Origin: Magnetospiraceae bacterium
GTDB lineage: Bacteria; Pseudomonadota; Alphaproteobacteria; Rhodospirillales; JBMYUJ01
Direction: 5' to 3'
NCBI GenBank assembly: GCA_049605255.1
Contig: JBMYUJ010000010.1
Coordinates: 2,199-66,198, forward strand
Length of the DNA stretch: 64,000 bases
The position numbers and the translations under genes were made by a program. Below, in pieces: positions 124 to 17,487 of this stretch (its first letter is position 1; each line of letters begins with the position of its first letter). A model generated the notes under the pieces. That model was not told where the DNA came from and searched no databases. It saw nothing but the letters and a program-made list of their open reading frames with translations.

Positions 124-126
124 CGG

Positions 127-834: not shown

Positions 835-864
835 CGCCGCCATTTGCGCGCGGGCTGCCGCCCA

Positions 865-909
865 TTCCCCTAAGGTCGTAGAGAAAACCCCACGGCGCCT
901 GCCTATAAT
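865..909 (+). promoter_or_regulatory. Cluster palindromic box plus -10 element upstream of cytochrome c
   Basis: TTCCCC-TAAG-GTCGTA at 865-880; TATAAT at 904-909 (23-nt gap). Confidence 0.65.
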
Positions 910-982
910 ACGCCGGTCATTCAGGCCGCCCCAAATCTACCACATGGTCGGCGGCAACAGTATTGTTGGAGAGTCGGTTGCC

Positions 983-1399
983 ATGATTAAGAAATTTGCT
1001 GCTATCGCCTGCGTCACCCTGGGGCTTGCCGCGTGTACGGGGATGCAAGATAACGCTGCCGCCAAGCATGATTCCGAATTCTATACCCCGACCGATGCGC
1101 AGACGGCCGCGGGGCTGCAGGTGTTCTCCCGCTGCAAGGGTTGTCATAGCCTGGATCCGTCGAAGAATACCTTCGGGCCGAACCTGCGCGGCGTCTACAT
1201 GCGCCCGGCGGCATCCTTGCCGCGGTTCCAATATTCGGAAGCGCTGAAAGGGTCCGGCATCGTGTGGAACGAGGAAAATCTGCGGTCCTGGATCGCGGGC
1301 AATGACGTGTTCGTGGGCGGTACCCGCATGCGGCATGTGGCGATTGCCGATGCCCTGGAGCAGGATTACCTCCTCGCCTTTTTGAAGTCCTTTAAGTAA
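983..1399 (+). CDS. Class I cytochrome c (c2-like), lipoprotein-anchored
   Basis: Lipobox LAAC, heme motif CKGCH, GPNL.GV, distal Met in GTRM; ATG at 983 after GGAGAG. Confidence 0.9.
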   Translation: MIKKFAAIACVTLGLAACTGMQDNAAAKHDSEFYTPTDAQTAAGLQVFSRCKGCHSLDPSKNTFGPNLRGVYMRPAASLPRFQYSEALKGSGIVWNEENLRSWIAGNDVFVGGTRMRHVAIADALEQDYLLAFLKSFK

Positions 1400-1960
1400 T
1401 CAGTCTTCTGGCGGCAGAGGTTCGGGGGTGACCGCGATCAGTGGCAACCCGGCCTCCCGCCAACCATCCGTTCCTTCCCGATACCAATACACTGCCTGGT
1501 AGCCATAGCTGGCCGCACGCTTTACCGCGTTCCACGCCATCCAGCAATCGGCGATACAGAAAATCAAAATGGGGTTGTCTTTCCTGCCGCCGGTCAGGCG
1601 CTGTAAGTTTTCCCGGTAGTAGCGTTCCAACTGAGGGGTGAGCGTGCCGCGCCCCACATTGGGCAGCCACACCGCGCCGGGCAGGGAATGCCGGGGCTCG
1701 GCCACCAGCCATTCGTCTTCCAGGCCGGGGGTGAGAAACCGCCCCGCACCGACCACATCCAGAATAAGCGCTTTCCCATCGGCAACCATCGCCTGCGCCT
1801 CTGGCAAGGTCACAACCGTGCCGCCGGGCACCGTTTGCGGCGTCGCGGCGCGGTAATGATCCAGCCGATACCCGTCGGGCATATCGACCGCGCCCGCCCC
1901 GCTGCCAACCAGCGTCAACAGGCAAAAAACCAATGCGGCGGGGGAGTGGGAACACCCCAT
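1400..1960 (-). CDS. PQQ-catabolism-associated CXXCW-motif rhodanese-like protein
   Basis: FCIADCWMAWNA motif, rhodanese-like YWYREGTDGW; signal peptide; ATG at 1960 with GGAGG RBS. Confidence 0.88.
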   Translation of the reverse strand: MGCSHSPAALVFCLLTLVGSGAGAVDMPDGYRLDHYRAATPQTVPGGTVVTLPEAQAMVADGKALILDVVGAGRFLTPGLEDEWLVAEPRHSLPGAVWLPNVGRGTLTPQLERYYRENLQRLTGGRKDNPILIFCIADCWMAWNAVKRAASYGYQAVYWYREGTDGWREAGLPLIAVTPEPLPPED

Positions 1961-1996
1961 GGAATCCTCCAAATCGCGAACGGTCAGAGGACTTCC

Positions 1997-2041
1997 TTAT
2001 TCCAAAGTCGAGTACAGGGGCAACCCGCCACGCCTTATACT
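1997..2041 (+). promoter_or_regulatory. Cluster palindromic box plus -10 element upstream of ABC operon
   Basis: TTATTC-CAAA-GTCGAG at 1997-2012; TATACT at 2036-2041 (23-nt gap). Confidence 0.6.
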
Positions 2042-2084
2042 TAGGGCTAATCAGAAAGCATAATGACAGGGACGGACAATCGAC

Positions 2085-3062
2085 ATGAAACGCTTCTGGA
2101 TAGGGATTGCGGCGGCTTGGCTCCTGATGGGCCTCCAGCCCGCGCAGGCGGAAACGCCGACCTTGAAAATCGGTGTGTTGAAATTCGGCACGGTGAATTG
2201 GGAGCTGGACGTGATCCAGCATCACGGCCTCGACGCCCAACAGGGCTATGCCTTGGAGGTGTATCCATTGGCCGGAAAGCAGGCCACCGCCATCGCCCTC
2301 CAGGCGGGCGAGGTAGATGCCATCGTCACTGATTGGATCTGGGTCTCCCGCCAGCGCAACATGGGCCGGGATTATACCTTTATCCCCTATTCGCGTATCG
2401 TGGGCGGGGTCATTGTCGGTAGGGATTCAGGCATTCAAACCCTCGAAGACCTTGCGGGCAAGAAGATCGGTATCGCAGGCGGGCCGGTGGATAAAAGTTG
2501 GCTGCTGGTGCGCGCCTTGGCGGAACAACGCCATGGGTTGGATTTGCAGAAAAGCGCGGAAACCGTATTTGGCGCGCCGCCGCTCCTGTCCAAGAAATTA
2601 GCGCAGGGCGAATTGGATGCGGTCATCACCTTCTGGCATTTCGCCGCCAGGTTGGAGGCCAAGGGGTATCACCGCCTGCTATCCGTCAACGATGCGGTCA
2701 CGGAACTGGGCCTGCAGGCGGATGTGCCCATGCTGGGCTATGTGTTCAGCGGCGATTTCGTGCGCGCCTATCCCGACGTGGTGAACGGGTTCGCGGGGTC
2801 CTCCCGGGCGGCGAAGAAAATCCTCGCCGAGTCCGATGCGGAATGGGATCGCCTGCGCCCCCTGACCAACGCCCCGGATGAGGCCACGCTCGCCGCGCTG
2901 CGAGAGGGTTATCGCGCCGGTATCCCCGAAACTTGGGGCGGCGATCAGCAGCAGGCCGCGGCCACGCTGTTCGAGGTTCTCGCCGCGCTGGGTGGGGAAA
3001 AATTGGTGGGGCCGCAACCCACACTCGCCGTCGGCACCTTCCTGCCGGGTTACGCATTCTGA
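2085..3062 (+). CDS. ABC transporter substrate-binding protein, NitT/TauT (SsuA-like) family
   Basis: Signal peptide (AQA), LQAGEVDAIV, I.TLEDLAGKKIG motifs; followed by permease and ATPase. Confidence 0.88.
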   Translation: MKRFWIGIAAAWLLMGLQPAQAETPTLKIGVLKFGTVNWELDVIQHHGLDAQQGYALEVYPLAGKQATAIALQAGEVDAIVTDWIWVSRQRNMGRDYTFIPYSRIVGGVIVGRDSGIQTLEDLAGKKIGIAGGPVDKSWLLVRALAEQRHGLDLQKSAETVFGAPPLLSKKLAQGELDAVITFWHFAARLEAKGYHRLLSVNDAVTELGLQADVPMLGYVFSGDFVRAYPDVVNGFAGSSRAAKKILAESDAEWDRLRPLTNAPDEATLAALREGYRAGIPETWGGDQQQAAATLFEVLAALGGEKLVGPQPTLAVGTFLPGYAF

Positions 3063-3799
3063 CCGCGCAGCTTCCCATACGCCTGATTTCCGTGGCGGTG
3101 CTGCTGCTGATCTGGCAGGGCGCGGCGCTCCTGTCGGCGCCAGACCTGCTCCCCGGTCCCGGGGTGACGGTGGCCGCCATGGGGAAGGCCTTGTTTCAGG
3201 GCGACATGCTGTTCCATGTGGGGGTGACCCTGGCCCGGGTGGCGGCGGCGTTTCTCATCGCCATGGCCATCGGCACGGCCATCGGGATCGCCCTCGGGAT
3301 GTCGCGCCGTATTGACCGGTTTTTCGAATTCTGGCTGCTGCTGTTTTTGAACCTGCCCGCGCTCGTCACCATCATCCTTTGTTATCTCTGGTTCGGGCTG
3401 ACCGAGGCGGCGGCCGTGGCGGCGGTGGCCATCAATAAGATCCCCAATGTGGCGGTCACCTTGCGCGAAGGGTCCCGCGCGCTGGACCCCAAGTTGATGG
3501 AAATGGCCCGTGCGTTTCGGATGGGGCCGGTTAAAACCCTGCATGTCGTGATCCTGCCGCAACTGGCGCCCTATCTTTCCGCTGCCGCCCGGGGCGGCTT
3601 ATCCCTGATTTGGAAGATCGTGCTGGTGGTGGAGCTGCTGGGGCGCGGCAGCGGTGTCGGTTTTCAATTGCATCTCTTTTTCCAGCTATTTGACGTCACC
3701 AACATCTTGGCCTACTCCTTGGCTTTCATCCTGGTCATTCAAATGATCGACCATGGGCTGTTTCAACCGGTGGAGCGGCATATCAATCGGTGGCGTTGA
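3059..3799 (+). CDS. ABC transporter permease, NitT/TauT family (start uncertain; CTG overlapping upstream TGA or a later GTG)
   Basis: Multiple hydrophobic helices, LLPGP, TLARV, EAA-like EMARAFRMG, VILPQLAP. Confidence 0.85.
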   Translation: MTAQLPIRLISVAVLLLIWQGAALLSAPDLLPGPGVTVAAMGKALFQGDMLFHVGVTLARVAAAFLIAMAIGTAIGIALGMSRRIDRFFEFWLLLFLNLPALVTIILCYLWFGLTEAAAVAAVAINKIPNVAVTLREGSRALDPKLMEMARAFRMGPVKTLHVVILPQLAPYLSAAARGGLSLIWKIVLVVELLGRGSGVGFQLHLFFQLFDVTNILAYSLAFILVIQMIDHGLFQPVERHINRWR

Positions 3800-3802
3800 G
3801 GA

Positions 3803-4510
3803 ATGGACGTTAAGATCCAGGCGAAGGCCTACGGCACGGGCGCGCCTGTGTTGGGCCCTCTTCAGTTTACATTGCGGGATCGCGCATTCGCCGTGCTGTT
3901 CGGCCCGTCTGGCTGCGGCAAATCAACCTTGCTGAACATCATCGCCGGGCTGGACCCGGCCTTTGACGGGGCGGTTTCGGGAGTCAGCGGGGCGGTCGGT
4001 TATGTTTTTCAGGAACCCCGGCTGCTGCCCTGGCTCAGCGTGGCGGATAACCTCCGCGTGGTGCTGGACGATCCCGCTCCGGCGGAACACCGGATTGAAA
4101 CGCTGCTCCGGGAAATGGAGCTGTGGGAGGATCGGGGAAAATTTGCCAATCGCCTGTCTCTTGGCATGGCGCGGCGGGTTGCCCTGGCCCGGGCGTTGGT
4201 GGTGGAGCCGAGCCTGCTCTTGATGGATGAGCCCTTCGTGTCCCTGGATGAACCCACGGCGGTGCGCCTGCGCCTTTTGCTGCGCCGGGTGGTCGACCGG
4301 CTCGGCCTGCGCTGTCTGTTTGTCACCCATAACATTCACGAAGCGGTGCAGTTGGCCGATCGGATTCTGTTTATTGCCGGGGCGCCGGCGGGGCTGGTGG
4401 CAGATGTACCGGTGACCCTTCCCACAGACCGGCGTTCCGGCGACGATGTGGCGAATTTCGTGAAAACCGTTCTGGCGCAGGAGCCTTCGGTAAGGCCTCT
4501 GCTGACCTGA
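3803..4510 (+). CDS. ABC transporter ATP-binding protein
   Basis: Walker A GPSGCGKS, Q-loop VFQEPRL, signature LSLGM, Walker B LLLMDEPF, H-loop VTH. Confidence 0.92.
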   Translation: MDVKIQAKAYGTGAPVLGPLQFTLRDRAFAVLFGPSGCGKSTLLNIIAGLDPAFDGAVSGVSGAVGYVFQEPRLLPWLSVADNLRVVLDDPAPAEHRIETLLREMELWEDRGKFANRLSLGMARRVALARALVVEPSLLLMDEPFVSLDEPTAVRLRLLLRRVVDRLGLRCLFVTHNIHEAVQLADRILFIAGAPAGLVADVPVTLPTDRRSGDDVANFVKTVLAQEPSVRPLLT

Positions 4511-4514
4511 AAAT

Positions 4515-5072
4515 TTACTCGATTGTCAACATCGGCAGCCAATGGGAGGCGGGCTCTCCCGGCTCTAAATCACCCTCGGTAATGGGCCGGGTGGTGCGGT
4601 CCTCGGGCGGGGAGGCCAGGAGGTCCATGTTCACCTCGTGCACCCTCCCGATCAGGCGGTCTTGCGCCAGCGCCAAGCGGTAATACACACCGTTCCACAT
4701 ATCGATCCCGTAATCGGTGGGGGCCTTCCAAATAAACAGAAATTCATATTCCAGATCGGTCAGATCATTGGCGGTGATGCGCTGGCCTTTCGCGTAAGGG
4801 TAGGGCAGGTGGCACAGGTAGCGGGTGTCCCCTTCCAGGCATTTGAAAGGCCGCATGGATAGGAAATGATCCTCGAACTTCTCCGGCGCCAAGGCGACGT
4901 CGAATGTCCAACCCGCGCCGTCCCGGACCAGGGTCACCGTGCCGATGGCGAGGGGATCACCGGACACCGGATGCAGATACACGGTTTTCCTGCCCGCAAT
5001 CTCGGCCTGTGCGGGGAGGGCGAACAGCGCCAGGCTCGCCAGGAAAAGCCTACGGAGGACTGTGATGATCAT
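4515..5072 (-). CDS. Exported hypothetical protein, last gene of the Ped/Lut-like ABC operon
   Basis: Signal peptide (ALPAQA); F.DHFLSMRPFKC...CHLPYPY motif; RBS GAGGGAG before ATG 5072 (alternative start 5090). Confidence 0.75.
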   Translation of the reverse strand: MIITVLRRLFLASLALFALPAQAEIAGRKTVYLHPVSGDPLAIGTVTLVRDGAGWTFDVALAPEKFEDHFLSMRPFKCLEGDTRYLCHLPYPYAKGQRITANDLTDLEYEFLFIWKAPTDYGIDMWNGVYYRLALAQDRLIGRVHEVNMDLLASPPEDRTTRPITEGDLEPGEPASHWLPMLTIE

Positions 5073-5086
5073 GGCGTTCGTCTCCC

Positions 5087-5896
5087 TCATCCGCCGGGTC
5101 CGCCCTTGCGGGGCATCATGCCGCGCTTCGGGTTGTATCCGGTCACCGCCAGGGCCAGGAAAACGGCCAGGGCAAGGCAGGTCCAGCCCAGCGGTTCCCA
5201 GGCCATCTTGCCGTAGAGCGCGTACCGCAAGACCTCCACCGCCTGGGTGAAGGGGTTGACCGCGCAGATGGTGTAAAGAAGGTCGCTGGATTCCCGCATC
5301 TTCCACAGCGGGTAGAGGGCCGAAGACAGGAAAAACATGGGGAAGATCACGAAATTCATGATCCCCGCGAAATTTTCCAACTGCCGGATGGCGGAGGAGA
5401 GCAGCAGGCCCATGGCCCCCAGCATCAGGCCCACCAGCACCAAGGCGGGCAAGATGGTGACATAGCCCAGCCCCGGCGCGCCCACATCGAACAGCGCGGC
5501 GATGCCAAGAAAGGCATAGGCTTGCAGGATCGACACCGCCGTGCTGGCCAACAGCTTGCACGACAGGAGATACCAGCGGGGCAGGGGGGCGGTGAGCAGA
5601 ATGCGCATGCTGCCCATTTCCCGGTCATAGACCATAGACAACGAGGACTGCATGCCGTTGAACAGCAGGATCATGCCGAGCAGGCCCGGCAGGATATACA
5701 CCTCGTAGGTGATATAGGTTTCGTAGGGCGGAATGATGGAGACCCCGAGGGCGGCGCGGAACCCGGCGGCAAACACCAACAGCCAGACCAGGGGCCGCAC
5801 CAGAGCGGCGAGGAAGCGTTCGCGTTGATGCAGGAACCGCAAAACCTCCCGGCCACTGATGCCGATCAGGCAGCGCAGCGCGTGGCGGCCCGTCAT
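5087..5896 (-). CDS. ABC-2 type permease, PQQ alcohol dehydrogenase system (PedC/LutF-like)
   Basis: Six TM segments, DREMGSMRILLTAP, FFLSSALYP, NPFT; operon context. Confidence 0.88.
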   Translation of the reverse strand: MTGRHALRCLIGISGREVLRFLHQRERFLAALVRPLVWLLVFAAGFRAALGVSIIPPYETYITYEVYILPGLLGMILLFNGMQSSLSMVYDREMGSMRILLTAPLPRWYLLSCKLLASTAVSILQAYAFLGIAALFDVGAPGLGYVTILPALVLVGLMLGAMGLLLSSAIRQLENFAGIMNFVIFPMFFLSSALYPLWKMRESSDLLYTICAVNPFTQAVEVLRYALYGKMAWEPLGWTCLALAVFLALAVTGYNPKRGMMPRKGGPGG

Positions 5897-6633
5897 GGCG
5901 CATCCCCCGCCAAGACCTGCTGGAAGGCCCCGCTGAGATCCGCCGCCCCAAATTGTTCGACCACATCGGGCACGGCGCCTTGGGCGCGGATGGTCCCCGC
6001 ATGCAGCATCACCACCGCATCGGTGGGCCTGATCTCATCGATCAGATGGGTGGCCCACAGCACACCGATATTTTCCTCGGCGGCCAGGGCATGGACATGG
6101 TCGACAATGGTGGCGCGGGTCGGCACGTCCAGCCCCACGGTGGGTTCGTCCAGCAACAACAGCCGGGGCCGGTGCAGCAGCGCGCGGGCGATCTCCACCC
6201 GTCGCCGATGCCCGCCATTCAGGCGGCGCACCTTCTCGCCGCGCCGCTCGAACATCTGTAACCGGGTCAGCTCCCGTTCCAGGCGGGCATCGGCCTCTCG
6301 CTTGCCGATGCCCTGCAGGGCGGCGAAATAACGCAGGTTCTGGGTGACCGTCAGATCCAGGTCGAGGGTCGGTTGCTGAAACACCACCCCCAGGGCGGCC
6401 ATGGCCTGGCGGGGGGATTGGGTCAGGGCATGCCCGGCGATCTCGATCCGGCCCGATGCGGTTTCGAACAGCCGGGTGACCAGGGATACCAAGGTGCTTT
6501 TTCCGGCCCCGTTGGCGCCCAAAAGCGCAGTGAAGCTGCCCGCCGCAACCGTGCAGGAAACATCCGAAAGCGCCTCCTTTTGCGCCCCGCCATAGCGATA
6601 GCCAACCCCGTCGATCCTCAGGGCGGCGCTCAT
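5893..6633 (-). CDS. ABC ATP-binding subunit, PQQ alcohol dehydrogenase system (PedB/LutE-like)
   Basis: GANGAGKS, VFQQPTLDLDL, LNGGHRRR, LLLDEPTVGLD, WATH. Confidence 0.9.
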   Translation of the reverse strand: MSAALRIDGVGYRYGGAQKEALSDVSCTVAAGSFTALLGANGAGKSTLVSLVTRLFETASGRIEIAGHALTQSPRQAMAALGVVFQQPTLDLDLTVTQNLRYFAALQGIGKREADARLERELTRLQMFERRGEKVRRLNGGHRRRVEIARALLHRPRLLLLDEPTVGLDVPTRATIVDHVHALAAEENIGVLWATHLIDEIRPTDAVVMLHAGTIRAQGAVPDVVEQFGAADLSGAFQQVLAGDAP

Positions 6634-7592
6634 TCAGGCCGCACCACCGCACCCCAAGGGTAGCGGCCCACCTTGATGGATTTCAGGGCCTCCAGGTCTT
6701 CGACATCGACCACCGTCACGTCGCCGGACACGCCATTGGTGGTGAACAGCAGTTTCTCATCGGGGGTGAAGGCCATATGCCAGACCCGCCGCCCAACGAG
6801 AATATATTTGACCACCTCGTAGGTCTTGCGATCCACCACCGCGAGATGGTTGGCGGGGCCGAGCGCGACAAAGGCCCATTTTCCGTCTTGGGTGAGGTCG
6901 ATGCCCACCGGCTGTACCCGGTCTGGGTGGACACCTTTAATGGCGAAATTTAGGGTTTCGATCACCTGCCGGGTCGCCACATCGATCACCGCCACGGTGC
7001 CGCCAATTTCCGCCGATACCCAGAGCAATGACCCATCGCGCTCGAACACCGCATCGCGGGGGCGTTGGTCCACCAGGGTATTATCCACCAGTTCGAATTT
7101 TTCCGTATCGATCCAATGCACCATATTGGTGGTTTCAGAAGTGTTGACGGCATATTTCCCGTCCGGGCTCACCGCCATGCCCTCTGGTTCCACCCCCACA
7201 TCCACCTGCGCCAAAACCCGGGCGGTTTCCGTATCCACCACGGTGGCGATATTGTCGTCTTCATTGGAGATATAGAGATGGCGGTTGTTGGGATGCAGGG
7301 CGAACTGTTCCGGGTCGGCGCCGGAAGGGAGCTCGCGCAATTTCTCCAGGGTAACCGCATCGAAGACCTCCACGGTGTTATCGTCCGACGCACAGATATA
7401 GAGCTTGCTATGATCATGGCTGAGCAGGATGCCCCGGGGGCGCTGGCCCACCGCCACCGTGCGGGTGACCTCCAGGGTTTTTACATCGATGACGGAAACC
7501 GTGTTGTCTTTTTCATTGGTCACGTACACCGTCTGCGCTGCGGCGGGCGCAGCCAATCCGAATGTCACGGTAAGTGCAAAAAGATATTTCAT
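6630..7592 (-). CDS. PQQ-catabolism-associated YVTN beta-propeller protein (PedA2/LutB-like)
   Basis: Signal peptide; repeated YVTNE..NTVSVID / VG..P.G blades; ATG 7592 overlaps upstream stop. Confidence 0.9.
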   Translation of the reverse strand: MKYLFALTVTFGLAAPAAAQTVYVTNEKDNTVSVIDVKTLEVTRTVAVGQRPRGILLSHDHSKLYICASDDNTVEVFDAVTLEKLRELPSGADPEQFALHPNNRHLYISNEDDNIATVVDTETARVLAQVDVGVEPEGMAVSPDGKYAVNTSETTNMVHWIDTEKFELVDNTLVDQRPRDAVFERDGSLLWVSAEIGGTVAVIDVATRQVIETLNFAIKGVHPDRVQPVGIDLTQDGKWAFVALGPANHLAVVDRKTYEVVKYILVGRRVWHMAFTPDEKLLFTTNGVSGDVTVVDVEDLEALKSIKVGRYPWGAVVRPE

Positions 7593-8767
7593 TTGGGGCC
7601 TCCCTTGGCCAGGGCGCAACGGCTCTCCGGCCGATCGATGCCCAGCGTATCCATCTCCGATAGGGGGTGCAGAAAACCCTCCTGCGGGGATTGGCTCACC
7701 AGGGACCGGGCGGTGACCAGCGGGATCGGTTGGCGCAACTGGCCGTTCCACGGGCGGTAGGAGAGTTTCCGCCCCTTGAAGGCAGCCAGCGCGAACTCCG
7801 CGCTTTTGATAAAGGCGGTGAGGGCTGCGGGATCCGCCTCGGCAGTCCGCGTGGCGGCTTCCCCGACCGAGCGCACCGCAAGCCAGGCGGCGTAATCCCG
7901 CGCCGTCATCGGACGCCCGAATTTCTTCACGAACCGGCTTTGTAGTTGCGCCGCGCCCCATTGCTCGATCACCCGATGCCAGGGGGTGGGAACCAGCCCT
8001 TGGGTTCCGGCGACGGGCCGGGGCGCCCAAGATCGGAACAGGATGAAATCACCGAAATCGCCGATCTCGTCGGCCACCAGGATCACGTGATGGTCCTTGG
8101 CATCTTGGGTAAACAGGGGCATTTCCGCCTGGGCCGTGCGGCGGGCGTCATGATCGCCGGTCCATTTTTTCTCCGAGACGATCTTGGCCCCGAATTTCAT
8201 TGCCGCCCGGCGCAATGCCGCCGCGTAGAGCACATCTTCCGGGCGCGGGCCTTCGATCAGGAACAAGCGGGTCCAGCGCTTTCTGACCAGATATTGCATC
8301 AACGCATCGGCCAGCATCACCCGGCTCGGCAGGGTATGCAGCAGGTTGGCGCGGCATCTGGCCTCCCGCAGGTGAATATCCGGTGCCGCCACGTTGAAAA
8401 ACAGCAGACCCTCCGCGCCCGGGGCCTGCAACGCGGTTTCCAGCTTGGCGGCGATCAGGTCTGCGATGATAAAATTTCTGCCTGCCTTTTGAAAGGCCGT
8501 TACCGCTTCTGTCGGGTCATCCGCTACCGCCAGGGTCACCGGGGCGAGCGTATAATGCTGGTTGGTGAAGCGGCCCGTGGTGTTGTTGTCATCAATGCCC
8601 AGCAAGGCGCCGGCCAGGCCTTCATCAGCGGGCGGCGTATCCAGATTGGAAAGCGCCGGCGGGCGATCTCGCACCTGCCCCAGATAAGCAATGATTATCT
8701 CCATCGGCGCGGCCCGCGCGGTGGCGGTGCATAGGAGAAGGAGAACAAGACTGAAGAAAATACGCAT
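7589..8767 (-). CDS. ABC substrate-binding protein, PQQ alcohol dehydrogenase system (PedA1/LutA-like, LivJ-type fold)
   Basis: Signal peptide; DNNTTGRF, RPVAGTQGL.P..WH...EQWGAAQLQSRF, FKGRKLSYRPWNGQLRQP motifs. Confidence 0.87.
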   Translation of the reverse strand: MRIFFSLVLLLLCTATARAAPMEIIIAYLGQVRDRPPALSNLDTPPADEGLAGALLGIDDNNTTGRFTNQHYTLAPVTLAVADDPTEAVTAFQKAGRNFIIADLIAAKLETALQAPGAEGLLFFNVAAPDIHLREARCRANLLHTLPSRVMLADALMQYLVRKRWTRLFLIEGPRPEDVLYAAALRRAAMKFGAKIVSEKKWTGDHDARRTAQAEMPLFTQDAKDHHVILVADEIGDFGDFILFRSWAPRPVAGTQGLVPTPWHRVIEQWGAAQLQSRFVKKFGRPMTARDYAAWLAVRSVGEAATRTAEADPAALTAFIKSAEFALAAFKGRKLSYRPWNGQLRQPIPLVTARSLVSQSPQEGFLHPLSEMDTLGIDRPESRCALAKGGPK

Positions 8768-8799
8768 TCGATTGGTCAGACCCAGGCGCAAGATAATGC

Positions 8800-9255: not shown

Positions 9256-9318
9256 TTATGATTCCCTGAACGACTAGAATGGCTTCTTTGGGCTAAAGAC
9301 CAACTTTTTCTTTTGGCA

Positions 9319-9364
9319 AGAATAGCAGAATGGTCTTTGACGGTAAAATTGGACCAAAGTATCG
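9319..9364 (-). promoter_or_regulatory. Cluster palindromic box plus leftward -10 for the cupredoxin/Ped-ABC operon
   Basis: TTGGAC-CAAA-GTATCG at 9349-9364; minus-strand TATTCT at 9324-9319 (24-nt gap). Confidence 0.45.
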
Positions 9365-9401
9365 TTGTCTCGTTTTTTACAGCGGTGATAGGTGTTTTTG
9401 C

Positions 9402-9725: not shown

Positions 9726-9747
9726 GGGTTTGGTCTCTTTTTGTTCA

Positions 9748-9792
9748 TGCGACTTTTAGGGCATAGCGGACCCCAGACTGGGTTGATACGTT
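9748..9792 (+). promoter_or_regulatory. Cluster palindromic box plus -10 element upstream of the AOR operon
   Basis: TGCGAC-TTTT-AGGGCA at 9748-9763 (reverse complement TGCCCT-AAAA-GTCGCA); TACGTT at 9787-9792 (23-nt gap). Confidence 0.55.
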
Positions 9793-9851
9793 AAACATTA
9801 CGTCAGGTTCCGGGACTCCCGTCTCCGGCCTGCACGAGGGAGGAGATTTTT

Positions 9852-10331
9852 ATGAATAAGGCGTTATTGATCACGGTTGACAAATGCACCGGTTGCAATC
9901 AGTGCGAGTTGGCGTGTTCGTATCATCACGAGGGTATTTTCAATCCGGCGAAATCTCGGATTCGGGTTTTTCATTTTCATGATCAAGGCCGGTATGTGGC
10001 CTACACTTGCACGCAATGCACCGAAGCCTGGTGTCAGCAAGCCTGCCCGGTCAACGCGATTACGGTCGACGGCGCGACGGGCGCGAAGGTCGTTTCCGCC
10101 TCGCGCTGCGTGGGCTGCAAGGTCTGCACCATCGCCTGCCCGTTCGGCACGGTGAACTACAATGCCTCTTCCGGCAAGGTGGATAAATGCGACCTGTGCG
10201 GCGGCGATCCGGCCTGCGCGAAGGCCTGCCCGACGGGTGCGATCACCTATATCGATGAAGAAGCGACCGGGTATGACCGGATGATGGCCTGGGCGGCGAA
10301 GTCGGACGTTGGCTCTGAAGCCACGGCATGA
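9852..10331 (+). CDS. aorA: 4x[4Fe-4S] ferredoxin subunit of aldehyde oxidoreductase
   Basis: CTGCNQCELAC, CTQC...CQQACP, CVGCKVCTIACP, KCDLC...PACAKACP; strong GGAGGAG RBS; directly upstream of AOR. Confidence 0.9.
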   Translation: MNKALLITVDKCTGCNQCELACSYHHEGIFNPAKSRIRVFHFHDQGRYVAYTCTQCTEAWCQQACPVNAITVDGATGAKVVSASRCVGCKVCTIACPFGTVNYNASSGKVDKCDLCGGDPACAKACPTGAITYIDEEATGYDRMMAWAAKSDVGSEATA

Positions 10332-10367
10332 TGACAGCGGCACGGGTCTTAGGGAGGATTTTATAAC

Positions 10368-12218
10368 ATGGCATGGGCTGGAAAGATTTTACGTGTCGAC
10401 CTGTCGGCTGGCACGTTCAAGACCGAACCGCTGAACATGGAATGGGCGGCGCGCTATTTGGGTCAACGTGGGTTGGCCAGCAAGTATCTGGTGGAAGAGA
10501 TCGATCCGAAGGTGGATCCCCTCTCGCCGGATAACAAATTGATCTTCGCCACGGGGCCGCTGACGGGCACGTCCGCGTCCACCAGTGCGCGTTATTCGGT
10601 GATCACCAAGGGACCGCTGACCGGGGCCATTGCCTGCTCCAACTCTGGCGGCTATTTCGGGCCGGAACTGAAATTCGCCGGCTGGGATATGATTATCTTC
10701 GAGGGCCGCGCGCCGAAGCCGGTCTATTTGTTGCTGCGCGATGGTGATGCCAAGCTGGTAGATGCCGAAGGCTCCGTGTGGGGCAAGTCGGTTTGGGAAA
10801 CCGAAGAAACCATCAAGAAGGCGCATCAGGACCCGCAAATCAAGGTGGCCTCCATCGGCGTGGCGGGCGAAAGCGGCGCGTTGTTTGCCTGTATCGTCAA
10901 CGATATGCACCGGGCGGCGGGCCGTTCCGGCGTTGGCACCGTGATGGGGTCGAAGAACCTGAAAGCGGTGGCGGTACGGGGCACCAAGGGCACCAAGGTG
11001 CGCGATACGGCGGCGTTTGACGCGGCCGTCACGGCGGGTAAGGCCGTGTTGGCGGGCAATGCGGTGACCGGCCAGGGGCTGCCCACCTATGGCACCCAGG
11101 TGCTGATGAATGTGATCAATGAAACCGGCGCCTTGCCGACCCATAACTGCAAAGACGTGCAGATGGAGAATGCCGACGCCATCGGCGGTGAAGCCATGCA
11201 TCGGCCCCGGGTATCCGACGGCAAGGCCAATCTGGTCCGCAACCAGGCCTGTTTCGGCTGCACCATCGGCTGTGGCCGGGTATCGAAGATCGATCCGACC
11301 CACTTCACCGTGAAGGATCGCCCGGAATATCAAAAGGCCACCGGCGGGTTGGAATATGAAGCGGCCTGGGCGTTGGGGGCGGCCACCGGCGTGGATGATT
11401 TGGAAGCGCTGACCTTCGCCAACTCCATCTGCAACGAGCAGGGCATGGACCCCATCTCCTTCGGGGCCACGGTTGCCGCGGCCATGGAGCTGTATGAAGG
11501 CGGCAAGATCACCAAGGAACAGACCGGCGGGGTGGAACTGAAGTTCGGTTCCGCGGCGGCCCTGGTCGCCATGGTGGAAGCCACCGGCAAGGGAGAGGGC
11601 TTCGGGGTCGAGATCGGCCTGGGCTCCAAACGCTTGTGCGAGAAATATGGCGATCCGGACCTGTCCATGACCGTCAAGGGTCAGGAATTCCCGGCTTACG
11701 ATCCGCGCGGCATTCAGGGCATGGGCTTGACTTATGCCACATCAAACCGGGGAGCCTGCCACCTGCGCAGCTACACGGTGGCGTCTGAAGTGCTGGGTAT
11801 CCCAGAAAAGACTGACCCGCTGGAAACCGACGGCAAGGCCGGTTTGGTGAAGGCGTTCCAAGACGCGACGGCGGCCTTTGACAGCGCGGGCATATGCCTG
11901 TTCACCTCCTTCGCCTGGACCCTGGAGGACGTGGCACCGCAAGTGGCGGCGGCCTGTGACGGGAACTGGACCGTGGATAGCCTGCTGGAAGCGGGTGAGC
12001 GGATCTGGAACCTGGAGCGCAAGTTCAACATGGATGCGGGCCTGACGGCGGCGGATGATACCCTGCCCAAGCGCCTGTTGAAGGATGCGGCGAAGACCGG
12101 TCCCGCCAAGGGCAAGGTTAACGGGCTCGAAAAAATGCTGCCCGAATATTACGAGCTGCGCGGTTGGACACCGGACGGGGTGCCGACCAACGAGACCCTA
12201 TCCCGGCTCAACCTGTAG
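10368..12218 (+). CDS. aorB: Tungsten-containing aldehyde:ferredoxin oxidoreductase family catalytic subunit
   Basis: GKILRVDLS, GPLTG, SNSGGYFGPELKFAGWD, AAGRSGVGTVMGSKNLKAV, CFGCTIGC, EYE, YATSNRGACH, YY.LRGW. Confidence 0.95.
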   Translation: MAWAGKILRVDLSAGTFKTEPLNMEWAARYLGQRGLASKYLVEEIDPKVDPLSPDNKLIFATGPLTGTSASTSARYSVITKGPLTGAIACSNSGGYFGPELKFAGWDMIIFEGRAPKPVYLLLRDGDAKLVDAEGSVWGKSVWETEETIKKAHQDPQIKVASIGVAGESGALFACIVNDMHRAAGRSGVGTVMGSKNLKAVAVRGTKGTKVRDTAAFDAAVTAGKAVLAGNAVTGQGLPTYGTQVLMNVINETGALPTHNCKDVQMENADAIGGEAMHRPRVSDGKANLVRNQACFGCTIGCGRVSKIDPTHFTVKDRPEYQKATGGLEYEAAWALGAATGVDDLEALTFANSICNEQGMDPISFGATVAAAMELYEGGKITKEQTGGVELKFGSAAALVAMVEATGKGEGFGVEIGLGSKRLCEKYGDPDLSMTVKGQEFPAYDPRGIQGMGLTYATSNRGACHLRSYTVASEVLGIPEKTDPLETDGKAGLVKAFQDATAAFDSAGICLFTSFAWTLEDVAPQVAAACDGNWTVDSLLEAGERIWNLERKFNMDAGLTAADDTLPKRLLKDAAKTGPAKGKVNGLEKMLPEYYELRGWTPDGVPTNETLSRLNL

Positions 12219-12227
12219 CCGGTTACC

Positions 12228-12272
12228 GGATCAACCCGGGCGGGGTGGTTCTTCTGCCCCGCCTGGGTATCC
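12228..12272 (+). other. GC-rich intergenic stem-loop within the AOR operon
   Basis: ACCCGGGCGGGG...GCCCCGCCTGGGT inverted repeat between aorB and the MoaD-like gene; no directly adjacent U-tract. Confidence 0.5.
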
Positions 12273-12308
12273 GATACTTTATTTCCGAGGGAGGTCGCGG
12301 AGACGACC

Positions 12309-12560
12309 ATGCAAGTGACCGTCAAACTGTTCGCCAGCTTGGGGCAGTTCCTGCCCGCATCCGCCAAGAACAATAAAGCCGAAATGGATGTTGCGGACGC
12401 TTCGACCGTAACGGCAACCCTTTCACAACTCGGCGTCCCGGAAGATCAGTGCCATTTGGTCTTGGTCAACGGCGCCTATGTGGCGCCCAGTAGCCGCGCC
12501 ACTCACGCTCTTAATGACAATGACACGCTTGCCGTCTGGCCTCCCGTCGCCGGGGGGTAA
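12309..12560 (+). CDS. MoaD/ThiS family sulfur carrier (AOR-associated)
   Basis: VKLFASL, VLVNG, C-terminal PPVAGG. Confidence 0.92.
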   Translation: MQVTVKLFASLGQFLPASAKNNKAEMDVADASTVTATLSQLGVPEDQCHLVLVNGAYVAPSSRATHALNDNDTLAVWPPVAGG

Positions 12561-12637
12561 GTCGCGGCATCGATGCGTGATCCTTCAGGCAGGCTGACAC
12601 CATCGGAACCTCCGATGCAGTAGGATGGGAATGAAAA

Positions 12638-14020
12638 ATGGCCAATATTTTCAAACGTATTTTCGGTGGTGGCGGCGCGAATGATGCAGCGCCTGCGCCG
12701 AAACCCGCGGCGCCTTCAGCGCCATCGCCCACACCCGCACCTGCTGCGGCGCCAACGCCGCGAACCGATTTGCCCGACCGGGTCGACCATCTGATTGTGG
12801 GTGCCGGACCGGCGGGCGTGGTTGCGGCGGAAACCTTGCGCAAATTCGCGCCGGACGCGACGATCCTGATGATCGGTAAGGAGCCTGAGCCGCCGTATTC
12901 GCGCATGGCGCTGCCCTATTTCCTGACCGGAAACGTGGATGGGCAGGGCACCTACCTGCGCCCGGACCCAGGTTATCTGGAAAGCAAACATATCGATTAT
13001 CGCATTGGCCGGGTTTCCACCGTGGATGGGGCCGGGCATAGCGTGACCTTGGAGGACGGCAGCACCGTGCGCTATGGCAAGCTGCTGCTGTGCACGGGCG
13101 CCCATCCCATCGCGCCGCCGATTCCAGGCCTGGAAGGGGACCGGGTCTGGAACTGCTGGACCCTGGACGACGCCCGGCAGATCGAACGATTGGCCCAGCC
13201 GGGCGCCCAAGTCGTATTGATGGGGGCCGGTTTCATCGGCTGCATCATCCTGGAGACCCTGGTGGAACGGGGCGTGAAGCTGACCGTGGTCGAAGCCGGA
13301 GACCGCATGGTGCCCCGCATGATGGACCCGATTAGCGGTGGCTTGATCAAGAAATGGTGCATCGAAAAAGGCATCGATGTGCGCACCAGCACCAAGGTGG
13401 ACCGGGTGGACCCGACCGCCGACGGGTTGCTGGTTCATCTGGATAACGGGGACCAACTACCTGCGCAACTCTTGGTGGTGTCTGCCGGTGTGCGGGCCTA
13501 TACGGAATTCTTGGAGGGCAGCGGGATCAGGGTCGATAGCGGGATTCTCATCGATGATCGCATGCAGACCAATATCCCGGATATTTATGCGGCGGGAGAT
13601 TGCGCGCAGGGCCTGGATTTCACCACCGGCGAGCATGAGGTGCATGCCATTCAGCCGACGGCCACCGAACATGGGCGGGTCGCGGCGCAGAATATGGCGG
13701 GGGTCGATACGGTCTATCAGGGCAGCTTGCAGATGAACGTTCTGGATACGGCGGGGTTGATCTCCGGCTCGTTCGGCCATTGGCACGGCACGGAGGATAC
13801 CTCCGAAGTGCTGGACGAAGAGAACTACAAGTTCCTTCGCCTGATTTTTGAGGGCAACCATCTGGTGGGCGCGGTCAGCCTGGGGCGGACCGATCATCTG
13901 GGTGCCATTCGCGGTTTGATCCAATCTGGCGCGCCGCTGGATGAGTGGAAGGACGTGCTGAAAGCCGACCCGCATCGGATCATGGATACCTATGTGGGTC
14001 TGACGGAAAAGGTCATTTAA
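12638..14020 (+). CDS. aorC: FAD/NAD(P)-dependent oxidoreductase subunit of AOR, with N-terminal extension
   Basis: GAGPAG, EPEPPYSR, GAGFIG, TNIPDIYAAGDCA; operon with aorAB. Confidence 0.85.
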   Translation: MANIFKRIFGGGGANDAAPAPKPAAPSAPSPTPAPAAAPTPRTDLPDRVDHLIVGAGPAGVVAAETLRKFAPDATILMIGKEPEPPYSRMALPYFLTGNVDGQGTYLRPDPGYLESKHIDYRIGRVSTVDGAGHSVTLEDGSTVRYGKLLLCTGAHPIAPPIPGLEGDRVWNCWTLDDARQIERLAQPGAQVVLMGAGFIGCIILETLVERGVKLTVVEAGDRMVPRMMDPISGGLIKKWCIEKGIDVRTSTKVDRVDPTADGLLVHLDNGDQLPAQLLVVSAGVRAYTEFLEGSGIRVDSGILIDDRMQTNIPDIYAAGDCAQGLDFTTGEHEVHAIQPTATEHGRVAAQNMAGVDTVYQGSLQMNVLDTAGLISGSFGHWHGTEDTSEVLDEENYKFLRLIFEGNHLVGAVSLGRTDHLGAIRGLIQSGAPLDEWKDVLKADPHRIMDTYVGLTEKVI

Positions 14021-14029
14021 CGGCGGTTT

Positions 14030-14107
14030 TTCGACCAAAGTTGGGCGTTGCAATGCGCTAATCCGACCAAAGTCGAGCGGAAAGGAGTCAAGCCAGTCGC
14101 GTATAAC
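14030..14107 (+). promoter_or_regulatory. Tandem cluster palindromic boxes plus -10 upstream of pedF
   Basis: TTCGAC-CAAA-GTTGGG (14030-14045) and TCCGAC-CAAA-GTCGAG (14062-14077); TATAAC at 14102-14107 (24-nt gap). Confidence 0.7.
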
Positions 14108-14160
14108 GGATACCAGACAACGGGCAACAGGGCCTGGGGCGAAACGAGGGTAGACGGACA

Positions 14161-14598
14161 ATGATGCGACGCGGTTTTGGGTTTTCTCTGACAGTTTTGA
14201 TCGGATTGGCTTTGGGGTCTCAAGCCTACGGCCATGGTGACGTGACCCCGCAAGCGGTGGATACCACGGGCCTGCCGGAGCTGGGCGATGAATGGGCGGA
14301 AACCAATCCTTTCCGGGATAGCGCGGAATATAAGGAACGGGCAATCGAGATCGGCTCTTCCGCCTACAATCAGAATTGCGCGCGGTGCCATGGCTTGGAA
14401 GCGATTTCCGGCGGTATCGCGCCCGACCTGAGATATTTGGAAGAAGATTTCGACGGCGATGAATGGTTCAAGGAGCGGGTCCGGGGCGGTGCTGTTCGCG
14501 ATGGCAAGGTCTATATGCCGAAGTTCGAAGGCGTTATCAGCCAAGAAGGTTTGTGGGCCATCCGCACCTATATCGACTCCCGCTCGGATGAGGATTGA
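14161..14598 (+). CDS. pedF: Cytochrome c-550 PedF/ExaB, electron acceptor of PQQ-ADH
   Basis: HGDVTPQAVDT.GLP.LG, YNQNCARCHGLEAISGGIAPDLRYL, G.VYMP.F. Confidence 0.92.
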   Translation: MMRRGFGFSLTVLIGLALGSQAYGHGDVTPQAVDTTGLPELGDEWAETNPFRDSAEYKERAIEIGSSAYNQNCARCHGLEAISGGIAPDLRYLEEDFDGDEWFKERVRGGAVRDGKVYMPKFEGVISQEGLWAIRTYIDSRSDED

Positions 14599-15496
14599 TC
14601 CCCTGAGCTATTCCGGGCAGTATCGCCACCTCGGCTTTGTTTTCCTCGCCTTTCTGTTTGTAATGATAAGCGCGATACCCCCCCGGGCTGTCGCGCTTAC
14701 GTTTGATGAGATCCAAGAAAAAGGCGAGATCATCGTCGCCGTCTATCGGGATTTTCCGCCGTTCTCTTACCGAGATGCAAATGGCACGTTGGTGGGGATC
14801 GACGTGGACATCGCCGCGCAGATTGCGAATTCCTTAGATGTGCGGCTCACCGTCTTTGAACTGACCGCCGATGAGACCGTGCAGGACGATCTGCGCAACG
14901 CGGTCTGGAAGGGTCATTACCTGGGCGGGTTGGTGGCCGATGTGATGCTGCATGTGCCTTATGATCGGGCTTTTTCTCTGCAAAACAACCAGGTATTTTT
15001 CTTCGGCGCCTATCTGGAGGAAGCCATCCACTTGACCTGGAATCCGGATACGGTGGGCGCCAAGCCGACCTTGGCGGTCTTCCGCTTCGAAAAAATCGGC
15101 GTCGAATTGGATACCTTGGCGGACTTCGCCCTGACATCCTTCAACGGCGGTATGATCCGCGAGAATGTGCTGCATTACCGCACCATCGAGGAAGCCGCCC
15201 AAGCCATGCGGGCGGGCGAGGTGCAGGCCATCCTGGCCACCCGCAGCCAGCTCGATCACGCCTTCCACGCGGATGCTGTTAAACCCCCGGTGGGCCCCGT
15301 TCTGCTGTCTGGCGTTGCCAAGCCGAAATGGCTGATCGGCGCGGCGGTCAAGCATACCTACCGACAACTGGGGTATGCGGTGGGGGATATCCTGGCCGCC
15401 ATGGTGAATGATGGCACCATGGAACAGATCTTCGCCAAACATGGCATTACCTACCGCCCCCCGCCGGACTCTCTGCTCGGCGCCACCGCACAATAG
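14588..15496 (+). CDS. Periplasmic substrate-binding family 3 protein (PedG/MoxJ-like role inferred)
   Basis: VAVYRDFPPFSY, GIDVDIA, ADETVQDDLRNAVWKGHYLG, ADVMLHVPYD; follows pedF. Confidence 0.82.
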   Translation: MRIDPLSYSGQYRHLGFVFLAFLFVMISAIPPRAVALTFDEIQEKGEIIVAVYRDFPPFSYRDANGTLVGIDVDIAAQIANSLDVRLTVFELTADETVQDDLRNAVWKGHYLGGLVADVMLHVPYDRAFSLQNNQVFFFGAYLEEAIHLTWNPDTVGAKPTLAVFRFEKIGVELDTLADFALTSFNGGMIRENVLHYRTIEEAAQAMRAGEVQAILATRSQLDHAFHADAVKPPVGPVLLSGVAKPKWLIGAAVKHTYRQLGYAVGDILAAMVNDGTMEQIFAKHGITYRPPPDSLLGATAQ

Positions 15497-15513
15497 CCGC
15501 GTCACGCCCCCCA

Positions 15514-15558
15514 TTCGACCAAGGTCGGATATGGGGCTTTATCCGTATTTGCTAATAT
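15514..15558 (+). promoter_or_regulatory. Cluster palindromic box plus -10 upstream of the SoxYZ-like gene
   Basis: TTCGAC-CAAG-GTCGGA at 15514-15529; TAATAT at 15553-15558 (23-nt gap). Confidence 0.7.
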
Positions 15559-15584
15559 CCCCTGAATAACATTGGGGATGTGCT

Positions 15585-16379
15585 ATGGTTTGGAAGGCAG
15601 CAATAGCCTGCGCGCTAACAGTTGCGCTTGTCAGTCCGCGCGCGAGCGCCGCGGCGGAAACCATCCCCGATCCGCTGCAATCTCCCTATTGGGACGTGAT
15701 GCAGGACGTGATGTTTGATGCGGCCCCCGTGGTGATGGATGACCGGGTGCGCGTAATCGCGCCCACCACCGCCGAAGATAATCTTCAGGTGCCGGTATCG
15801 ATAGACGCGTCGAGTTTGGGGAAAGTTCAGGAACTCATCGTGTTTGCCGACCTCAACCCCATCAGCAAGGTGGCCCATTTCTATCCGGAGCGGGCGCGGC
15901 CCTACCTGGAGCTGCGCCTGAAGGTAAACCAGGCAACTCCCATCCGGGCGGCGGCGCTGACCGAAGATGGCGTCTGGCATGTGGGTGGTGTTTGGGTGGA
16001 CGCGGCTGGTGGTGGCTGTACAACCCCCTCCATGGGCATGACCAGCGGGGATTGGACGGAGACTTTGGGGCATGTGCAGGCCCGGGTCTGGGATAGGAAA
16101 GCGCAGGGCGATCGGTTGCGGTTCCGGGTGATGCATCCCATGGATACCGGGTTGGTGGACGGCATTCCGGCCTTTTACATCGAAACCTTGACGGTGACGG
16201 ATGCAGAAGGCGCTGCGATCGCGCGGCTCGAAACCTTTGAGCCGGTCATGGAAAACCCGGTCTTCAGCATCGAGGTAGACCCGTCCCATCGGGCGGCGAA
16301 GGGCTATACGGTTATGGGCGTCGACAATAACGGAAACCAGGTAAATGCCTTCGTTCCCCGGGATGGCAACGGTTCCTGA
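15585..16379 (+). CDS. Quinoprotein dehydrogenase-associated SoxYZ-like carrier (fused)
   Basis: Signal peptide; AED...VPV, AAGGGC swinging-arm motif, HPMDTGLVDGIPAFYIE SoxZ-like part. Confidence 0.88.
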   Translation: MVWKAAIACALTVALVSPRASAAAETIPDPLQSPYWDVMQDVMFDAAPVVMDDRVRVIAPTTAEDNLQVPVSIDASSLGKVQELIVFADLNPISKVAHFYPERARPYLELRLKVNQATPIRAAALTEDGVWHVGGVWVDAAGGGCTTPSMGMTSGDWTETLGHVQARVWDRKAQGDRLRFRVMHPMDTGLVDGIPAFYIETLTVTDAEGAAIARLETFEPVMENPVFSIEVDPSHRAAKGYTVMGVDNNGNQVNAFVPRDGNGS

Positions 16380-17343
16380 CGTGGCCCGGGCCCCGCGCGT
16401 TATCCCGCTTTTTATCGTTTGGGTATGCCTATTTGGGGCTTTCCTGTTCGCGGCTGGAACGGCCTTTTCCGCCGAAAAATCCTATAATCTGAGTCCCCGT
16501 GAAGTGGCGCCGGGCACCTTTGTTTTCGAAGGCCGTCAGGAATATTTTTCCTTCGAAAACGGGGGCAATATTGTCAACACCGGGTTCATCGTCACCGAAA
16601 CCGGGATCATCGTGATCGATACAGGGCCGTCACGGCTCTATGGCGAGCAGATGCGCGCCGCGATCCGGCAGATCAGTGTCAAGCCCATCGTCAAGGTGTT
16701 CAATACCCATCACCATCCAGACCATTTCCTTGGCAACCAGGCCTATTTCGATACGCCCATTACCGCCCTATCTACCACTCGGGAGGGAATTGTCCAGGAG
16801 GGGGACACGTTTTTGCAGAACATGTACCGCCTGGCCGGGGATTTCATGCGCGGGACGGAGGTGTTTGCCCCAACGGAATCCATTTCAGTATCGGTGCAAA
16901 CCATCGCAGGCCGGGAACTGCGTTTCTACGCCTTGCAGGGGCACGATCATGCGGACCTGGCGATTTTCGATCCAACCACGGGTGTCTTGTTCGCCGGGGA
17001 TCTGGTGTTCAAATTTCAGGCGCCCACCACGCCGCACGCCCATATTGGCAATTGGTTGGAGGCCTTGGCGCAATTAGAGGAAATTCCGTTCCGCGTGATC
17101 GTGCCTGGTCATGGCCCGGTGCATCGTGACCAAAGCGGCATTGCGGAAACCCGCGATTATCTCACTTGGCTGGAAGCGCACCTGCGCGAAGCCCTGGCGG
17201 CGGGCGCCGATATGATGGAAACCATGGCTTCGCCCCTACCAGACCGCTTCGCCGACTGGGCGGTCGTCAAAGAAGAATACGCGCGGTCGGTCAGCCATCT
17301 TTTTCCGGCTCTCGAAGCTGAGATTCTGCCGCAGGTGAACTGA
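16363..17343 (+). CDS. Quinoprotein relay system zinc metallohydrolase (SoxH-like MBL fold)
   Basis: NGGNIVN, VIDTGPS, THHHPDHFLGN, GH, GDLVF, VPGHG; start uncertain (16363 or nearby). Confidence 0.87.
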   Translation: MATVPDVARAPRVIPLFIVWVCLFGAFLFAAGTAFSAEKSYNLSPREVAPGTFVFEGRQEYFSFENGGNIVNTGFIVTETGIIVIDTGPSRLYGEQMRAAIRQISVKPIVKVFNTHHHPDHFLGNQAYFDTPITALSTTREGIVQEGDTFLQNMYRLAGDFMRGTEVFAPTESISVSVQTIAGRELRFYALQGHDHADLAIFDPTTGVLFAGDLVFKFQAPTTPHAHIGNWLEALAQLEEIPFRVIVPGHGPVHRDQSGIAETRDYLTWLEAHLREALAAGADMMETMASPLPDRFADWAVVKEEYARSVSHLFPALEAEILPQVN

Positions 17344-17367
17344 CGCGCCGCGCCGAGCGGGCGCCCC

Positions 17368-17412
17368 TACGACTTTTGACGAATTGTTTTCCACCGTTCT
17401 GTCAACGAGAAT
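17368..17412 (+). promoter_or_regulatory. Cluster palindromic box plus -10-like element upstream of PQQ-ADH
   Basis: TACGAC-TTTT-GACGAA at 17368-17383; GAGAAT at 17407-17412 (23-nt gap). Confidence 0.6.
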
Positions 17413-17487
17413 TCCAAAATCAGCAATGGGGATTGTTGAGCGTCGTCTCACTCCTCGAGGCGCGCGAAACAAAGGGAGGAAAATCAT

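Follow-up and report, generated by a model that had tools for sequence, protein, structure and literature searches.

The window, by which we mean the whole stretch of 64,000 nucleotides analysed here (G000:C10:2199-66198), comes from a Magnetospiraceae genome of 3.26 Mb that is 95.5% complete, and its best named homologs belong to Rhodospirillales. Bases 1-23,500 are occupied by a cluster for alcohol oxidation dependent on pyrroloquinoline quinone (PQQ). It comprises genes for a cytochrome c, a CXXCW rhodanese, an ABC importer, pedA1A2BC, the aldehyde oxidoreductase (AOR) operon aorA-aorB-moaD-like-aorC, pedF, SoxYZ-like and SoxH-like proteins and a PQQ-dependent alcohol dehydrogenase (ADH), and it also encodes a NarL/LuxR regulator, a NahK/ErcS-type kinase and a NosP/FIST protein. 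An earlier note on this DNA had described eight copies of a 16-bp imperfect palindrome (hereafter the box) as a shared operator of these genes, all intergenic and ahead of operon starts, and all eight 16-mers were recovered at their positions.

The boxes are given from left to right with the gap, in nucleotides, to the downstream -10-like hexamer, and with their score and rank within the window on a matrix learned from relatives only. The box at 865..880 (plus strand; TATAAT at 904, gap 23; 15.1 bits, rank 5) precedes the cytochrome c gene (983-1399). That at 1997..2012 (plus strand; TATACT at 2036, gap 23; 14.8 bits, rank 6) lies before the importer, of NMT1 type according to its gene families (2085-4510), and the rhodanese gene (1400-1960, minus strand) is divergent from it. 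Box 9349..9364 (minus strand; TATTCT at 9324, gap 24; 16.0 bits, rank 4) heads a leftward operon on the minus strand, made of a secreted hypothetical protein (8800-9255), pedA1-pedA2-pedB-pedC (5087-8791) and a further hypothetical protein (4515-5075), the ped genes all scoring above cut-off with TIGR03863, 03866, 03864 and 03861. Box 9748..9763 (plus strand; TACGTT at 9787, gap 23; 12.9 bits, rank 7) is located before aorA. The pedF promoter has two boxes, a main one at 14062..14077 (plus strand; TATAAC at 14102, gap 24; 17.3 bits, rank 3) and, 32 bp before it, a second one at 14030..14045 (plus strand; 9.1 bits, rank 19) with no -10 of its own; behind them lie the pedF cytochrome c550 gene (14161-14598) and a gene for a solute-binding protein reaching 15496. 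The box at 15514..15529 (plus strand; TAATAT at 15553, gap 23; 23.4 bits, rank 1), before genes for a SoxYZ-like carrier and a SoxH-like metallohydrolase (15585-17343), is the highest-scoring site of the whole genome. Finally, the box at 17368..17383 (plus strand; GAGAAT at 17407, gap 23; 18.1 bits, rank 2), directly followed by TTG, precedes the ADH gene (17488..19230, plus strand). A terminator-like hairpin (19255-19282) separates the ADH gene from the regulator gene (19363..20019, plus strand), and a weak 10-bit site at 19235, upstream of this terminator, was kept outside the box count. The hybrid kinase (20050-22293) and NosP/FIST (22295-23461) genes follow on the minus strand.

The aor operon (9852..14020, plus strand) encodes, according to Pfam, an FeS subunit (aorA, 9852-10331), a predicted tungsten-pterin subunit (aorB, 10368-12218), a MoaD/ThiS-like protein (12309-12560) and an FAD subunit (aorC, 12638-14020). 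WorL, WorS and the FAD subunit stand together in one operon, as in class III tungsten AORs, and the best solved relative of AorB is the Aromatoleum tungsten AOR (PDB 8C0Z, E 1e-295, full length). The best PDB matches of the ADH are 6ZCV and 6ZCW, which we take to be PedH, with an identical WDFDGVNE motif. In the part of PMC5487730 consulted, an extra Asp metal ligand in place of Ser is tied to lanthanide use in PedH. The window ADH has this Asp, the mark of lanthanide PedH/ExaF-type enzymes in that source, and is therefore predicted to be lanthanide-dependent. It is the sole PQQ-ADH of the genome, so no switch between calcium and lanthanide enzymes is needed.

The consensus first written for the boxes, TWCGAC-N4-GTCGDA, turned out to be a poor descriptor: five of the eight sites match it with at most 2 mismatches, and 1997, 9349 and 9748 carry 4, 5 and 5. 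Nor is it enriched, with 20 window matches (at most 2 mismatches) against 15.4 expected by chance and 18 of 100 shuffles reaching 20, and for this reason the IUPAC pattern was dropped in favour of a matrix. Leave-one-out scoring on the eight window sites made no convincing case for box 9748 (p between 2.6e-3 and 1.2e-2 per position), a doubt that the relatives-only matrix resolved. To build this matrix, the clusters of five relatives supplied 55 upstream regions, all oriented, in which a motif was sought de novo; the window itself contributed no sequence, and the resulting consensus is ATTCGACNAAAGTCGAAT. The log-likelihood was 239, as against 52-62 for three shuffles, for which fewer seeds were used. 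With this matrix the sites at 15514, 17368, 14062, 9349, 865, 1997 and 9748 take ranks 1-7 of the window, in that order. At 14 bits or more, bases 1-19,500 contain 6 sites where 0.18 would be expected (P 4e-8), and the remaining 44.5 kb contain none. The operator box is real.

The same note had set a -10 hexamer at gap 23-24 behind seven boxes. All seven hexamers are present, but only five of them read TAnnnT (P 1.6e-7 versus the local intergenic rate), TATAAC (14102) and GAGAAT (17407) being partial matches. Among 36 gene-proximal training sites, TAnnnT starts 23 nt past the box in 10, whereas each of the other gaps between 12 and 35 accounts for 2 sites at most. Flank by flank, it occurs in 13/36 on the gene side versus 6/36 on the far side, the latter partly from divergent promoters, and TTG directly follows the box in 10/36 sites versus 2/36 on the far flank. 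A held-out test was then made on 14 loci comprising 98 upstream regions, with a box cut-off of at least 11 bits. Boxes were detected in 48 regions (aorA 7/7, pedF 11/13, pedA1 8/10, pqqB 6/7, ADH 6/12, regulator 1/11). At these 48 sites TAnnnT stands at gaps 22, 23 and 24 in 5, 9 and 6 cases and at any other gap in at most 2, for a background of 0.0104 per position. The held-out relatives thus support a shared activator box with a fixed -10 spacing. The pedF box with its GTATAA is conserved among relatives, and paired boxes precede pedF also in G018, G043 and G093.

A gap of 23 is the sum of a 6-nt hexamer and a 17-bp spacer. The box therefore does not overlap the -35 element, as had been claimed, but abuts it: with the transcription start placed by this spacing, it would end at -36, directly before a sigma70 promoter, and be centred at about -43.5. 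Matches to sigma54 promoters in the cluster are at chance level and none is at a promoter. Our analysis gave no indication that the box responds to lanthanides.

A box of this kind has been described before. According to the accessible part of PMC5715377, the ACTU box at Pseudomonas fluorescens acs extends from -52 to -36 and is needed by CrbR for activation. The ACTU system (CrbS/CrbR, or MxtR/ErdR, of Pseudomonas and Vibrio) shares with the window a GAC-/TAC-N4-GTC imperfect inverted repeat, there bound by a NarL/LuxR regulator, and an end at -36 directly before an RpoD promoter, a position that we deduce here from the spacing. ErdR binds GACNNNNGTC in an electrophoretic mobility shift assay (bioRxiv 10.64898/2026.09.07.749794, seen in part), and the published P. 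fluorescens sites score 9.7-19.9 on the relatives-only matrix. In view of this match in sequence and position, the motif class is already known (PMC5715377, in the part consulted), as is the regulator family. The targets differ, being PQQ-alcohol and AOR genes in the window instead of acs and actP; no SLC5-fused CrbS was found, and the window regulator falls outside the acs-linked clade.

Which protein reads the box was approached by elimination and co-occurrence. The genome encodes four GerE-domain proteins. The CrbS/CrbR system was rejected as the local one: the genome has no CrbS-like fusion of an SSF domain to a kinase, its SSF proteins being of 597 and 485 aa only, and neither acs (8.4 bits) nor actP (7.2 bits) has a box. 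The protein encoded at 19363 falls among PQQ-cluster regulators and outside the acs-linked clade; its ErdR score is 176, the cut-off being 390. Its close homologs are annotated 'Glycerol metabolism activator', that is, AgmR. Together with a NosP/FIST protein (NF041558, 487.8 bits, cut-off 450) and a NahK/ErcS-family hybrid kinase (NF041832, 450.9 bits, cut-off 400), proposed as the sensor pair, it forms within a PQQ-ADH cluster the combination typical of AgmR/ErbR/PedR1 regulators; the AgmR-type label is drawn from homolog names and gene neighbourhood. A helix pattern common to this protein and the acs-linked regulators (KESTVKAHIS versus SEATIKAHVT; TvKAH..I..K....RTQA) explains the shared box. 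In NarL this helix reads the bases. The regulator was found in or beside all 14 held-out loci. Since no CrbS-like kinase exists in the genome and acs has no box, the local AgmR/ErbR-type regulator is the likely binder.

Alternatively, the boxes could be bound by another CrbR/ErdR-like regulator, either the other full NarL regulator of the genome (on contig C42, 35% identical) or one whose gene is missing from the 95.5% complete assembly, the local regulator acting indirectly. The box is after all the published CrbR/ErdR box, four P. fluorescens ACTU sites scoring within the range given above. In addition, the sources consulted in part propose CrbRS above agmR in P. aeruginosa and report a drop in ped genes when erdR is mutated in P. 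alloputida. Orthologs of the C42 regulator exist in G006, G018 and G043, but none was found in G093 (99% complete) or G134, which both bear boxes. This absence, the want of a CrbS-like SSF kinase and of boxes at acs and actP, and the constant presence of the local regulator with its shared helix pattern make this alternative improbable.

The closest known gene set to that of the local regulator is the Pseudomonas ped/exa regulon of AgmR. In the accessible part of PMC12997753, AgmR activates ped and pqq genes, within an activating trio PP_2663-PedS1-AgmR. Shared with the window are pedH, pedF, pedA1A2BC, the SoxYZ-like, SoxH-like and rhodanese genes, the NosP-NahK(PedS1)-AgmR trio and a pqq operon that lies far off but is controlled alike. 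In contrast, the aldehyde step is carried out there by PedI and here by a predicted tungsten AorABC, and the window has a single ADH and, in its cluster, no second NarL regulator of the PedR2 kind. The consulted portion of that text gives no AgmR operator sequence, and our literature searches, mostly without subscription papers, found no operator for AgmR-type regulators. The box is new as a likely operator of this regulator type.

That the aor operon is co-activated with the PQQ-ADH genes, and not a bystander among them, had been put forward from the window sequence, and comparative tests on relatives support it. A survey of 300 genomes of the order covered the regulator, AorB and the ADH; at 102 AOR loci, of which 5 were dropped for want of a full aorA match, the 300 bp upstream of aorA were scored with a cut-off of at least 12 bits. 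Classes of aor copies were set by gene position, the scores of the first 27 loci, G015 included, being known beforehand. A box precedes the cluster-linked aorA in 3/3 training loci and 7/7 held-out loci. None of the 8 extra copies, whose genomes hold a linked copy as well, has it (the 'extra' copy of G122 lies about 24 kb from the regulator), and it precedes 1 of the 74 copies in genomes where no regulator ortholog was found (Fisher p 2e-9 for 7/7 versus 1/74, with kin that are not independent). A linked and an extra aorA were compared within each of 7 genomes: their coding DNA is 80-100% identical, their upstream DNA is unrelated (44-53%), and the box is on the linked copy only. For instance, the two aorA of G240 (C39 and C47, loci L207 and L206) are 100% identical in DNA and share a leader of about 35 bp, and the copies diverge just where the cluster copy bears the box.

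Several observations weigh against the co-activation of aor. Where a genome has the regulator but its sole AOR is unlinked, 12 bits are reached in only 2/5 cases. Kinship leaves only 4 phylogenetically independent pairs on supported branches; each of them agrees with expectation (sign test p 0.125). G167 (86% complete), in which no regulator was found, nevertheless has an 18.3-bit box. About half of the sampled PedH-bearing genomes are without a close AOR, which is therefore optional. The aorA box of the window is the weakest of the seven promoter boxes, besides its 5 mismatches to the written consensus, and transcription from a sigma70-like promoter at 9337-9365 could continue into aorA, although such promoters occur at chance level (7 versus 7.3 expected). 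As regards the regulon at large, a number of high-scoring boxes at other sites of the genome lack a -10 at the usual distance.

In another reading, the PQQ regulon is real but aor a mere passenger in this genome, with a weak or decaying box and transcription either constitutive or from the promoter of the upstream gene. The promoter-side half of box 9748 is indeed degenerate (right half AGGGCA), the TTGACG-17-TATCGT element at 9337-9365 points to aorA, and the lack of AOR in about half of the sampled PedH genomes fits as well. Yet TACGTT stands exactly at gap 23 from this box, and the promoter-side halves of the aorA boxes of relatives are imperfect too (GTTGAA, GGTGAA, AGCGCA), which speaks for a tuned weak site and against decay. 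Box 9748 is also the best site within its intergenic gap (chance of about 0.003 for 130 bp), and a near-identical box stands behind the same upstream gene in G222. Together with the contrast of 7/7 linked with 0/8 extra copies, this renders the passenger explanation quite improbable.

The promoter-like element at 9337-9365, assignable to the conserved hypothetical gene 9402-9725, overlaps box 9349, and the regulator could repress this gene while activating the leftward operon from that box. NAD aldehyde dehydrogenases were also considered as regulon members and rejected: among 7 of the 12 genomic matches, which were those checked, the best score was 9.5 bits and none had a box. No Aldedh-family gene is encoded in the cluster.

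As to the history of the aor operon, the 11 linked aorA copies were rejected as a single clade (approximately unbiased test, p-AU 4.6e-10; 27 rows, 159 columns). Two histories fit this result: the local aor operon was captured several times, or the link is old and was accompanied by gene conversion. The order hypothetical gene-box-aorA is common to the window, G093, G134, G186, G222 and G240, and favours a linkage that is at least partly old. Among 80 metagenome AOR loci, including about 11 with PQQ-system genes nearby, none reached 12 bits before aorA. In one of them, L154 (7290-9350), a GAF-AAA-HTH activator of sigma54 type is encoded between the AOR and the PQQ-ADH/pedF genes, with -24/-12 motifs before pedF and soxYZ; similar AOR-PQQ layouts occur in L130, L151, L153 and L156. 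The box is therefore not universal. AOR genes standing beside PQQ-ADH/pedF genes without it in other lineages support a functional pairing under a different regulator, and the L154-type layout is a convergent regulatory solution.

Boxes were also found outside the window. The pqqA-B-C-D-E operon, on another contig (G000:C5:40350, L286) and outside the training set, is preceded by a box scoring 16.1 bits, with the -10-like TACCGT following at gap 23. Shortly before the window begins (G000:C10:505, L285), an 18.6-bit box, likely a ninth site of the cluster, precedes a four-gene operon encoding a MotA/ExbB-like protein and two unknown proteins, with the window gene 127-834 last. The genome scan at 12 bits or more returned 112 non-cluster matches, of which just 6 have TAnnnT at gaps 22-24 (background 2.8%), so that most are probably noise. 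Chance palindromes out of AT-rich intergenic DNA, an idea to which the lack of enrichment of the written consensus lends some colour, were effectively refuted as a source of the boxes by the window ranking with the relatives-only matrix, and with the independent de novo motif, the held-out spacing peak and the pqq site added, their probability is close to nil.

Taken together, boxes of constant spacing, conserved in relatives and tracking the cluster-linked aor copies, lead us to consider it probable that the GAC-N4-GTC boxes bind the dimer of the adjacent regulator, which would co-activate the genes for the predicted lanthanide PQQ-ADH, cytochromes, transporters, PQQ synthesis and predicted tungsten AOR. 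A signal (alcohol, aldehyde, or heme/NO via the FIST protein) would reach the hybrid kinase, and we infer that the NosP/FIST protein and this NahK-type kinase control phosphorylation of the regulator. The phosphorylated dimer, at about -43.5, would then recruit sigma70 polymerase to promoters with a weak -35 in a class II-like manner, and PQQ synthesis, metal uptake, PedH, cytochromes and AorABC would be co-expressed. In the periplasm, PedH would turn alcohol into aldehyde by way of cytochrome c550; in the cytoplasm, AorABC would convert the aldehyde to acid with NAD+, giving NADH and filling the place of the NAD aldehyde dehydrogenase PedI/ExaC of the Pseudomonas cluster. We lean towards regarding the whole as an alcohol-to-acid pathway using two rare metals, from lanthanide PedH to tungsten AorABC, under one activator in Alphaproteobacteria of this order, with resident aor copies captured repeatedly by duplication or conversion behind an ACTU-type box.

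Such a regulon would tie a tungsten enzyme to lanthanide-dependent alcohol oxidation. The aorABCDE operon of Aromatoleum aromaticum (PMC6365974 and PMC13328260, in the parts consulted; 8C0Z) has the same FeS, tungsten-pterin and FAD subunits and MoaD-like gene, and differs from the window operon, which bears the box of an alcohol regulon. A word search of the accessible text of tungsten-enzyme papers, these two among them, met no mention of PQQ nor, in these two, of a regulator, and our literature searches, again mostly without subscription papers, found tungsten AOR nowhere linked to PQQ or lanthanide alcohol oxidation. A class III tungsten AOR would be new as a direct member of a PQQ-alcohol regulon. 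A 2026 classification, as far as consulted, lists a member of defined physiological role in just 5 of 92 tungsten oxidoreductase clades (PMC13328260), which makes a regulatory assignment useful for class III AORs; if the two-metal reading is true, these enzymes would have a defined role in physiology and the operator of AgmR-type proteins would come to light. For AgmR/ErbR/PedR1-type regulators, the box supplies a concrete operator that can be tested. AgmR and its paralog CrbR/ErdR may read the same box, which bears on layered alcohol/acetate control in Pseudomonas.

A few further observations concern boxes and genes elsewhere. The second-best box of the genome (G000:C5:45340, L286; 22.3 bits), with no -10 at the usual gap, lies 1.7 kb past pqqE between the genes of a secreted protein and of a MetA-type porin. 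Boxes of 15-19 bits without TAnnnT at the spacing were found at G000:C9:5532, C20:8198 and C37:26203, near coxB/HAD, ferredoxin and histidine kinase genes. Strong boxes at L020 9909 and L041 9929 have on one side the gene of a more distant PQQ dehydrogenase (about 40% identical) and on the other a trio of regulator, kinase and FIST protein, which suggests that FlhR/AfdR-like systems use the same box. A tupBCA-like tungstate transporter, followed by a molybdate/tungstate-binding regulator, is encoded at G000:C30:29633-32880 (L284) without a box; the TupA and TupB families are its best named tungstate/molybdate matches, though below cut-off (229/400 and 172/320). Within the window, on the minus strand, one open reading frame (24284-26092) fuses a CoA-binding domain to an O-acetylhomoserine sulfhydrylase-like PLP enzyme, and another (60109-62667) encodes an 852-aa protein with a caspase domain and a CHAT domain.

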